DNA of 2,218 nucleotides from a virus. Lineage: Duplodnaviria > Heunggongvirae > Uroviricota > Caudoviricetes. The stretch lies in IMG/VR virus record IMGVR_UViG_2698536508_000032. One strand, 5' to 3'. The notes under the pieces were generated by a model, which did no database searches, had not been told where the DNA came from, and saw nothing but the letters and a program-made list of their open reading frames with translations. How positions within the stretch are numbered: position 1 is the first letter of the stretch; the number at the start of each line of letters is the position of its first letter. The position numbers and the translations under genes are program-made. Shown one piece after another: positions 1-2,218 of this stretch.

Positions 1-64
1 TGTGCCCCCATCGCTCTGATAGTCTGGTGTCGTCGGGTCCTTCCTGGAATTATGGCCCGTTACG

Positions 65-76
65 GGGCGGCGACCT
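65..76 (+). other. cosN core, 12-nt cohesive-end sequence GGGCGGCGACCT (copy 1)
   Basis: Exact match to the 12-nt lambda cohesive end, flanked by gttacg on the 5' side and cgcgg on the 3' side as in lambda. Confidence 0.8.
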
Positions 77-115
77 CGCGGTTTTTATCTGTTTATGAGA
101 ATTTTCCGGCAAAAG

Positions 116-132
116 TCAGATCCGATCTTCTT
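116..132 (+). repeat. cosB R3-like terminase small subunit binding element (tcagatccgatcttctt)
   Basis: Occupies the position of lambda R3 (CGTTTCCGTTCTTCTTCG) in the colinear alignment. Its core is AGATCC instead of GTTTCC. Contains two GATC sites (119-122 and 124-127). Confidence 0.6.
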
Positions 133-169
133 CTCTGTAACAGACTGTTTAACAATGAAAATATTAAAA

Positions 170-186
170 AAAGAAAGGATCTGACA
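170..186 (-). repeat. cosB R2-like element, inverted relative to R3 and R1 (minus strand gtcagatcctttctttt)
   Basis: Plus strand reads aaagaaaggatctgac, in the position and orientation of lambda R2 (AAAGAAAGGAAACGACAG). Its reverse complement shares the 12-mer cagatcctttct with R1. Contains GATC at 178-181. Confidence 0.6.
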
Positions 187-214
187 CGAGGCATTTTAGC
201 CAGAAAATGCCATT

Positions 215-231
215 ATCAGATCCTTTCTCAT
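215..231 (+). repeat. cosB R1-like element (atcagatcctttctcat)
   Basis: In the position of lambda R1 (CTGTCGTTTCCTTTCTC). Shares cagatcctttct with inverted R2. Contains GATC at 219-222. Followed by a T-rich tract as in lambda. Confidence 0.6.
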
Positions 232-1777: not shown

Positions 1778-2218
1778 TTAACCAATTTTGACGATAACAA
1801 ATTTGCGAATATCTGCCGGTACCGGCTGCGGTGCGCTGTGCGTCTGCACGTACTCAATCGCCGGATCGCCGTCCTCAATCCAGTTTTTCGGGTAAAACAT
1901 GTTTTGCGTTGCGCCCGTTCTGACCGCTTCCTGATCCATAATCGCACCATAGGCCACCAGCCCTTTATTGTTGGTGTTACCCAGGACCAGCAAATCAGGC
2001 TCAAGGAAATATTTTTCGGTGCCGTCGCTGTCAGTGTATTTGCCGGAATAGACGACAAGGGCAATATCGCCCAGATAGCCTTTAAAGCTCACCACTTCAC
2101 CCAGGTTTTTACAGGCCAGTTCTGCGGCGTGAGGTAGCCTGAGTTTAACGGAAACTCCTTCCTGAAATAGAATGGCCTCAGAAGGAGCTAATAATGAGCA
2201 GAAAAACCCAACGTTACT
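1778..2218 (-). CDS. E: Major capsid protein, lambda gpE family, C-terminal portion (5' end lies beyond the window)
   Basis: The frame is open from the window edge to the stop at 1778-1780. LGEVVSFKGYLGDIALVVYSGKYTDSDGTEKYFLEPDLLVLGNTNNKGLVAYGAIMDQEAVRTGATQNMFYPKNWIEDGDPAIEYVQTHSAP aligns with the lambda gpE C-terminus LGKAVSYKGMYGDVAIVVYSGQYVENGVKKNFLPDNTMVLGNTQARGLRTYGCIQDADAQREGINASARYPKNWVTTGDPAREFTMIQSAP (from memory). The ORF-track start at 2095 is a GTG inside this longer open frame. Confidence 0.85.
   Translation of the reverse strand, partial: SNVGFFCSLLAPSEAILFQEGVSVKLRLPHAAELACKNLGEVVSFKGYLGDIALVVYSGKYTDSDGTEKYFLEPDLLVLGNTNNKGLVAYGAIMDQEAVRTGATQNMFYPKNWIEDGDPAIEYVQTHSAPQPVPADIRKFVIVKIG

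Follow-up and report, generated by a model that had tools for sequence, protein, structure and literature searches.

The cosB-like stretch at positions 116-231 of the DNA analyzed here (2,218 nt at full length, referred to as the window) carries R elements in which AGATCC stands in place of the GTTTCC of lambda, which raises the question of which terminase would read them. The original prediction assigned them to the adjacent gene for a small terminase subunit (TerS). In the alignment with lambda, 116-231 is a complete cosB of lambda architecture, with R3, an IHF-like site, an inverted R2 and R1, and it belongs to a cos site at 34-231, which is called cos2 here. A cosQ segment (GGGTCCTTCC; 35-44, +), found by alignment with lambda cosQ, and a cosN cohesive end (GGGCGGCGACCT; 65-76, +), which has the same letters as in lambda, place the cosQ heptamer and the 12-nt cohesive-end cosN at lambda spacing. 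They are followed by an AT-rich spacer (bp 18-50; 82-114, +) that contains TTTATGAGAATTTTCC and aligns with lambda I2; an I2-like segment of this kind is kept in every sampled lambda-like cos site.

The R3 core CAGATCCGATCT (117-128, +) contains two GATC and shows two mismatches to CAGATCCTTTCT, the consensus of its class being CAGATCCGTTCT. The R1 core (217-228, +) and the inverted R2 core (172-183, -) are both exact copies of CAGATCCTTTCT, as had been predicted. The three cores start 53, 108 and 153 bp from the cohesive end (R3, R2 and R1), compared with 53, 109 and 155 bp in lambda, so the expected lambda positions and orientations were indeed found, with R2 inverted and a spacing within 0-2 bp. 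Three R repeats with an inverted R2 and an R3 at about bp 50-65 are what is seen in lambda-like complex cos sites. Also the replacement of GTTTCC by AGATCC in each R element was confirmed; it lies at bp 54-56 (AGA vs GTT), and R3 is the same as lambda R3 from bp 57 to 69. Between R3 and R2, the candidate IHF site I1 (TAACAGACTGTTT; 138-150, +) occupies the same alignment column as lambda I1 (TAACTTAATGTTT). It agrees with 11 of the 13 positions of YAANNNNTTGATW (4 unspecified N), which is a consensus match only; lambda I1 scores equally, and one relative (L007) has a perfect match to YAANNNNTTGATW. A small inverted repeat (GGCATTTT...AAAATGCC; 190-211) lies between R2 and R1, where lambda has a comparable small hairpin, and forms the inner part of a hairpin in the terS sense. 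In contrast to lambda with its co-oriented Nu1, a co-oriented terS followed by terL is absent downstream of cos2 (no co-oriented ORF of at least 90 aa within 400 bp). With the neighboring terS encoded on the other strand and terL missing, the site is a phage-type site and not the end of a phage genome.

Lambda-like cos sites were sampled from IMG/VR with an anchor that is free of R sequences (cosQ ... TTTATGA), which gave 147 sites in total when combined with loci fetched from E. coli genomes. This cosQ...I2 anchor replaced an earlier one, the AT-rich I2 14-mer TTTATGAAAATTTT, which was dropped as it mostly matched unrelated IMG/VR viruses. At the fixed R3 position the 147 sites fall into discrete classes with one recognition helix per class. 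The lambda class (CGTTTCC, 59 sites) is accompanied by a co-oriented helix [SV][IV]RTIQNW (SIRTIQNW), the 21-type class (TGTCGG, 22 sites) by a co-oriented DPRTIERW, and the CATGTCCGG class (22 sites) by a TerS of the Nu1 family with another N-terminal domain. The AGATCC class comprises 17 sites, 12 of them distinct, with DVRTIT[AG]W in 9/9 of those that have a co-oriented gene. Smaller classes are the N15-like GGTTGTTG class (9 sites; SVQAFDKW, with terL often next), the GGTGGTGG class (8 sites; a TerS of the window type with VSATAFDKW in 8/8) and the CACCACCAC class (3 sites; RppA). Assignment of the AGATCC class to the N15/Monarch specificity was rejected, as the R3 of N15 reads GAGGTTGTTGTT. 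Two further searches were uninformative on taxonomic range: a gapped R3...R2 pattern had 0 matches in species-representative genomes, and the 16-mer CAGATCCGTTCTTCTT had only chance matches, in unrelated phyla.

R cores of the AGATCC type could be identified in nine sampled prophages (L007-L010, L012, L124, L142, L152 and SerU-LTIIb) and in Gifsy-1, a phage of Salmonella. In all ten, the co-oriented TerS belongs to the Nu1 family and carries the helix DVRT[I/V]T[A/G]W. Downstream of this TerS, terL and portal genes are found in the annotated E. coli prophages L007-L010 (four), and terL is found in Gifsy-1. GATCC is unchanged in all three R elements of the 12 distinct sequences, which have at least 5 cosN types, and also in Gifsy-1, and CAGATCCG (R3), AAAGGATC (R2) and AGATCCTTTCT (R1) are invariant across the 12. 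The TerS of this class shares 82% identity with the 21-type TerS of CFT073 prophage 4, and their helices differ at residues 16, 20 and 21. The lambda/21 discrimination is governed by residues 20 and 24, and lambda, 21 and N15 are the three specificities documented experimentally (PMC4669245). The co-occurrence in 10/10 phages suggests that AGATCC R sites are bound by TerS proteins with the DVRT[I/V]T[A/G]W helix. Neither the window nor the island in which it lies encodes such a TerS.

The R cores of Gifsy-1 (CCAGATCCGTTCTTCTT, AGAAAGGATCTG and GCAGATCCTTTCC) are those of the class found in the window. Gifsy-1 and E. coli lambdoid prophages such as SerU-LTIIb have the same order of R3, I1, inverted R2 and R1, and within the Gifsy-1 class the spacing to cosN is the same and GATC is present in every R. 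There are three differences. The Gifsy-1 TerS (helix DVRTVTAW) is co-oriented with the site and followed by terL, whereas the window has no such gene and a convergent, N15-like terS; R3 of the window reads CCGATCT, compared with CCGTTCT in the Gifsy-1 class; and cosN of the window is lambda-type, while that of Gifsy-1 differs at bp 8, 9 and 11. The change of packaging specificity that had been proposed for the window was thus upheld in so far as the R cores differ at the class-defining bp 54-56 and pair with a distinct helix, but the core is that of Gifsy-1 and, judged by the R cores, is already known from this phage and many E. coli lambdoid prophages. The comparison of the recognition helix with lambda and 21 had a similarly divided outcome: the classes do pair with distinct helices, but the helix of the window TerS is N15-like and AGATCC pairs with DVRT[I/V]T[A/G]W. 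Based on these pairings, the Gifsy-1-type cosB and its TerS helix probably constitute a fourth lambda-like packaging specificity. In the literature searched, no description of the Gifsy-1 class as a coherent cosB/helix group beyond lambda, 21 and N15 was found. In SerU-LTIIb (KU052038.1; L002, 6461-6679), an annotated 'NU1-like protein' overlaps cosQ-cosN-cosB and is probably spurious, and the true start of terS is at 6727.

Over positions 1-2128, the window matches the chromosome of E. coli O26:H11 11368, as well as many other strains, with 100% identity. In O26:H11 11368, an island of ~10 kb lies between roxA and phoQ and encodes a tyrosine integrase, an HTH regulator, a RepA helicase, SSB and PerC, as well as a lambda-E-like capsid protein, a lambda-D-like decoration protein, a 137-aa protein, TerS and a 93-aa protein. 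Genes for TerL, portal and tail are missing from the island. Judging by this gene content and location, the window is part of a phage-inducible chromosomal island (PICI, a phage satellite) of the EcCICFT073 family beside phoQ. The 137-aa protein (1004-1417, -) belongs to no Pfam family; it is conserved with EcCICFT073 and is encoded between the decoration homolog and the second cos site described below. The last part of the window (2129-2218) is the end of an IS element with the start of orfA (MSRKTQRY...), which shares 97.8% identity with the copies carried by Stx2a phages. The IS element interrupts the lambda-E-like capsid gene at 2129, a gene that is intact (351 aa) in O26:H11 11368, and the island of the window may therefore be decaying. 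The junction between the IS element and the capsid gene was absent from the complete E. coli genomes searched.

The island TerS (256-798, -) has a probable start at the MNKKN ATG (783) and belongs to the Nu1 family (Pfam Phage_Nu1, E=8e-23). Its 180 aa align over the full length with lambda Nu1 at 36% identity, including the C-terminal part, which in lambda Nu1 binds TerL. Identity to gp1 of N15 is higher (44%, E=3e-50). It was considered whether this protein could be an Rpp, as Rpp proteins have 135-153 aa and lack the TerL-binding C-terminus, but this was rejected: the protein has 180 aa, aligns up to Nu1 residue 180 and shows no similarity to RppA. A comparison with solved structures, RppC included, gave no match. 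The gene converges on the AGATCC cosB, ends 27 bp beyond R1 and is not followed by terL; in the 8 loci with this type of TerS, terL was likewise not found after the gene. An island variant in which a full-length N15-like TerS replaces Rpp was not found in the literature searched.

Upstream of terS, a second cos site points toward the gene, with cosQ at 973 to 963 (-; part of 932-973) and cosN (GGGCGGAGACCT) at 943 to 932 (-), and is the homolog of cos1 of EcCICFT073. Together the two cos sites create a 76-nt inverted repeat (34-109 and 899-974). At bp 50-68 of the second site, a G/T-rich segment (TGGTGGTGGTTTTGTTGTT; 876-894, -), invariant in 7 relatives, is a candidate R3 for the island TerS and resembles the mapped R3 of N15, GAGGTTGTTGTT (PMC4669245). 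Candidate equivalents of R2 and R1 are the arms of an 11-nt perfect inverted repeat, AATACACCAAC / GTTGGTGTATT (800-810 / 827-837; 800-837, -), located upstream of terS, of which CAATACACCAACCTGAA is invariant in the 7 relatives. The proposed equivalence of TGGTGGTGGTTTTGTTGTT and the 800-837 repeat to R3, R2 and R1 is derived from these sequence comparisons. An own G/T-rich, N15-like cos is located 5' of the window-type TerS in 8/8 loci, and the second site is probably the cognate cos of the island TerS. With the N15/Monarch module, the window shares a similar TerS helix (ATAFDKWGV, compared with VQAFDKWGV) and a G/T-rich R3-like segment at bp ~50-68. It differs in that the R3 position reads TGGTGGTGGTTTTGTTGTT instead of GAGGTTGTTGTT, no terL follows, and an extra inverted repeat is present at the R2/R1 positions. 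At cos1 of the RppA type (L011, 2612-2624), ACACCACCACCAC is located at the R3 position; equally far from cosN, the window-type cos1 (885-894) carries TGGTGGTGGT, which resembles the reverse complement of ACACCACCACCAC, thus the same core on the opposite strand.

EcCICFT073, the prototype PICI of Gram-negatives, has two functional cos sites (Fillol-Salom 2018, 2019; PMC6092414, PMC6739421), of which cos1 operates with RppA (c1503), a protein of the island, together with helper TerS, and helper-dependent induction, packaging and transfer have been demonstrated for this island only (PMC6092414, PMC6739421). Both cos sites were functional when cloned, and deletion of cos2 raised lambda-mediated transfer (PMC6092414). 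No phage-type cosB was identifiable at either cos in the original papers, and a later analysis by the Feiss lab concerned the Rpp-dependent site only. EcCICFT073 is of the same island family as the island of the window and shares its phoQ-side integration site and gene order. Its cos2 occupies the same slot, between rpp/terS and the 93-aa ORF, with the same inversion relative to cos1, and cosQ-cosN is nearly identical (window 1-82 corresponds to the reverse complement of CFT073 L011 ~3290-3372). By slot, inversion and cosQ-cosN, the AGATCC cos is the homolog of EcCICFT073 cos2. The differences are that EcCICFT073 cos2 carries repeats of the CATGTCCGG type where the window has AGATCC, and that a 144-aa RppA occupies the slot in which the window has the 180-aa N15-like TerS. 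In EcCICFT073 cos2 (L011, 3100-3330), CCATGTCCGGTTTCTCT is located at the R3 position, with two copies of CCGGACATG/C downstream. Many phage contigs of IMG/VR have the same R3 CCATGTCCGGTTTCTCT as well, there followed by a TerS of the Nu1 family that starts with MATQTEVARHLSLTDRQLRRL.

The cos1/cos2 pairs that could be observed are GGTGGTGG/AGATCC, GGTGGTGG/21, 21/AGATCC, RppA/CATGTCCGG and GGTTGTTG/CATGTCCGG. Without exception, the 8 AGATCC sites that have no co-oriented gene occupy cos2 in dual-cos islands. The convergent TerS next to them is of the window type in the window and L001 and of the 21 type in L006, L179, L202 and L210, while L005 and L087 have no terS between the two cos sites. 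Conversely, the window-type TerS also occurs with a 21-type cos2 (L053 and L137) or without cos2. This indicates that the island TerS and the AGATCC cosB are independent modules. A complete phage-type cosB is present at the second cos both here and in CFT073, and its class varies independently of the island TerS or Rpp; a cos2 that carries a complete phage-type cosB of a swappable class was not found in the literature searched. The claim that the adjacent terS reads this cosB was not supported, and its product is very unlikely to be the cognate reader, as the gene is convergent and N15-like, has its own cos in 8/8 loci and belongs to an independent module.

It is therefore asked what the site serves for on the island. 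The cos2 site (34-231), with its cosB of the Gifsy-1 class on a PICI of the EcCICFT073 family, would probably, although with considerable room for doubt, serve as entry site for the terminase of a Gifsy-1-class helper. For the binding protein, the initiation at cos2 and the packaging direction, the following scheme is proposed from the comparison of sites and genes. The helper terminase would use cos2 as entry site, helper TerL would be anchored on cosN (65-76), and replicated island DNA would then be packaged in the plus direction of the window. From the other cos (943 to ~800, -), packaging would run in the reverse direction, with the N15-like TerS of the island acting jointly with a helper TerL. 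The consistent location of phage-type modular cassettes at cos2 fits such a helper entry. So do two published results, the function of both cloned EcCICFT073 cos sites and the disadvantage that cos2 brings with lambda as helper. Constraint on the R elements is visible in the island copies, where only 1/36 R columns varies compared with 23/76 spacer columns (p=5e-4); the sole variable R column is a T-to-A change of the window itself. If functional, cos2 would offer the satellite a second route into helper capsids that is independent of Rpp or its own TerS, and could also explain the better transfer by lambda after deletion of cos2.

Several results speak against this helper entry. This cosB is present in 652 E. 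coli genomes; in 23 evenly sampled island-bearing genomes, only one AGATCC-type cosB was found per genome, which indicates that the host of the island does not as a rule harbor a cognate helper. Co-resident Stx1a phages were rejected in this role, as their cosB is lambda-type. Moreover, some relatives with the same TerS have no cos2, and the effect of the deletion in EcCICFT073 implies that, with a helper that is not cognate, an island can do without cos2 or even be better off without it. Among the R elements of lambda, R3 is the most critical (PMC9026076), and the T-to-A change affects a near-invariant position of R3, so that the copy in the window may be impaired.

The four GATC of the cosB start at 119, 124, 178 and 219, and each R element contains at least one Dam site, in agreement with the original prediction. 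By base composition alone the cluster is only mildly unusual: 4 GATC within 116 bp were reached in 72/3000 Markov-1 simulations of the window, and three of the four belong to one motif that is repeated and are hence not independent events. The fourth (124-127) arises from the T-to-A change (A at 125), which is seen in this lineage only, while T is present at this R3 position in 95/98 sampled lambda-, 21- and AGATCC-type sites; this extra Dam site may be a defect rather than design. It is the comparison between classes that points to a non-chance status of the GATC repeats. GATC is present in 39/39 R elements of the AGATCC class (12 distinct sequences and Gifsy-1), with 3-4 GATC per cosB, compared with ~0 in lambda- and 21-type sites. 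Among the classes sampled, the AGATCC class is by these counts alone in having a Dam site in its putative recognition core, and with a GATC in every R the R sites of the class are Dam substrates.

Given the proximity of gene and site, the assignment of the AGATCC R elements to the island TerS (256-798, -) was weighed against a helper terminase. The protein is full-length and its winged helix-turn-helix is unlike that of lambda. Furthermore, the N15-specific terminase packages lambda DNA at about 50% efficiency (PMC4669245), and the identity of the AGATCC R3 with lambda R3 from bp 57 on leaves room for a similar cross-recognition. However, terS is convergent on the site and not downstream of it, a conserved G/T-rich cos of its own lies upstream in 8/8 TerS of this type, and the combinations described above, in both directions, separate gene and site; in phages, AGATCC sites are always paired with a quite different helix. 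Recognition by the island TerS is therefore held to be improbable, possible only via the known promiscuity of N15 terminase toward a lambda-like R3. Another alternative is that cos2 is a relic of recombination with a Gifsy-1-type phage that is non-functional or decaying here and kept by linkage only. The substitution in R3, the IS element in the capsid homolog at 2129, the lack of a co-resident cognate prophage in the sampled genomes, the optional occurrence of cos2 among relatives and the improved lambda-mediated transfer of EcCICFT073 without cos2 (PMC6092414) would all be consistent with decay. On the other hand, R elements are far better kept than spacers in the diverged island copies, and cosQ, cosN, I2, I1 and all three R elements are intact and placed at the spacing of lambda. 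In several island lineages, cassettes of phage type, belonging to three classes, are independently present in intact form at this position, and the EcCICFT073 sites were functional when cloned (PMC6092414). A relic is thus judged unlikely.

Two further explanations concern the R elements as such. As terS converges on the site, R1 and R2 could mainly act as its intrinsic terminator, a hairpin followed by a U-run. The minus-strand RNA from 260 to 110 indeed folds at -51.2 kcal/mol (z = -6.4; 0/200 shuffles as good), R1 and R2 build the stem with UUUUUUUAAUAUUUU directly after it (165-230, -), and the hairpin begins about 27 nt past the terS stop codon. A simple terminator scan of 110-260 found nothing, as the loop is too long for the rule of the scan. 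The same inverted repeat and A-run are, however, present in true phages without a converging gene, and although stems tolerate compensatory changes, the R elements are invariant and the same as in phage sites. Conservation extends to R3, I1, cosN and cosQ, which are not part of the hairpin, and EcCICFT073 cos2 has no such inverted repeat. Termination is thus very improbable as the main role and would more likely be incidental or secondary; the phage-type cosB may at the same time serve as terS terminator. Methylation is the other explanation: if binding of TerS to GATC-bearing R elements depended on Dam, packaging would be coupled to the replication state. The pac site of phage P1 is a precedent for methylation-dependent packaging. 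GATC in 39/39 R elements of the class, essentially missing from lambda- and 21-type cosB, is in line with such gating, and the helix residues V16, T20 and A/G21 of the class are small or hydrophobic and would be compatible with contact to a methyl group (I/Q/N in lambda and P/E/R in 21). However, a GATCC recognition core fully accounts for the conservation of GATC, constraint by TerS and constraint by Dam being inseparable here, and the extra GATC in R3 of the window is a change in one lineage. In the literature searched no link between Dam and cosB was found; a paper on Dam-dependent control of Salmonella prophages is unrelated to cos or packaging. Dam gating is therefore considered quite unlikely, but as the core of the Gifsy-1 class is itself a Dam site, an effect of methylation on cos recognition can be tested directly.

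A broader proposal combines helper entry at cos2 with an exchangeable helper-class cosB cassette (Gifsy-1-, 21- or CATGTCCGG-type), bidirectional packaging with two keys and Dam-gated binding in the Gifsy-1 class. That all of these hold jointly seems doubtful at best. If the exchangeable cassette is real, the unmodified terminase of the helper would package the island in the direction opposite to the TerS- or Rpp-dependent cos, and the helper range would be wider.

A second group of dual-cos islands was observed in L005 and L006. In L005 (3436-3900) and also in L087 (2426-2950), the two inverted cos sites (21-type and AGATCC-type) are separated by only 398 bp, as if the L006 arrangement had undergone a deletion. 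Both L005 (2442-2951) and L006 (2443-2952) encode a 169-aa protein of the DUF1441 family (Pfam, E=7e-36), with its gene some 500 bp upstream of the AGATCC-type cos. The possibility that it is the TerS of the CATGTCCGG class was rejected, as that TerS belongs to the Nu1 family and has a different N-terminal domain. The DUF1441 protein is unrelated to the compared terminase proteins and is the product of a separate island gene.
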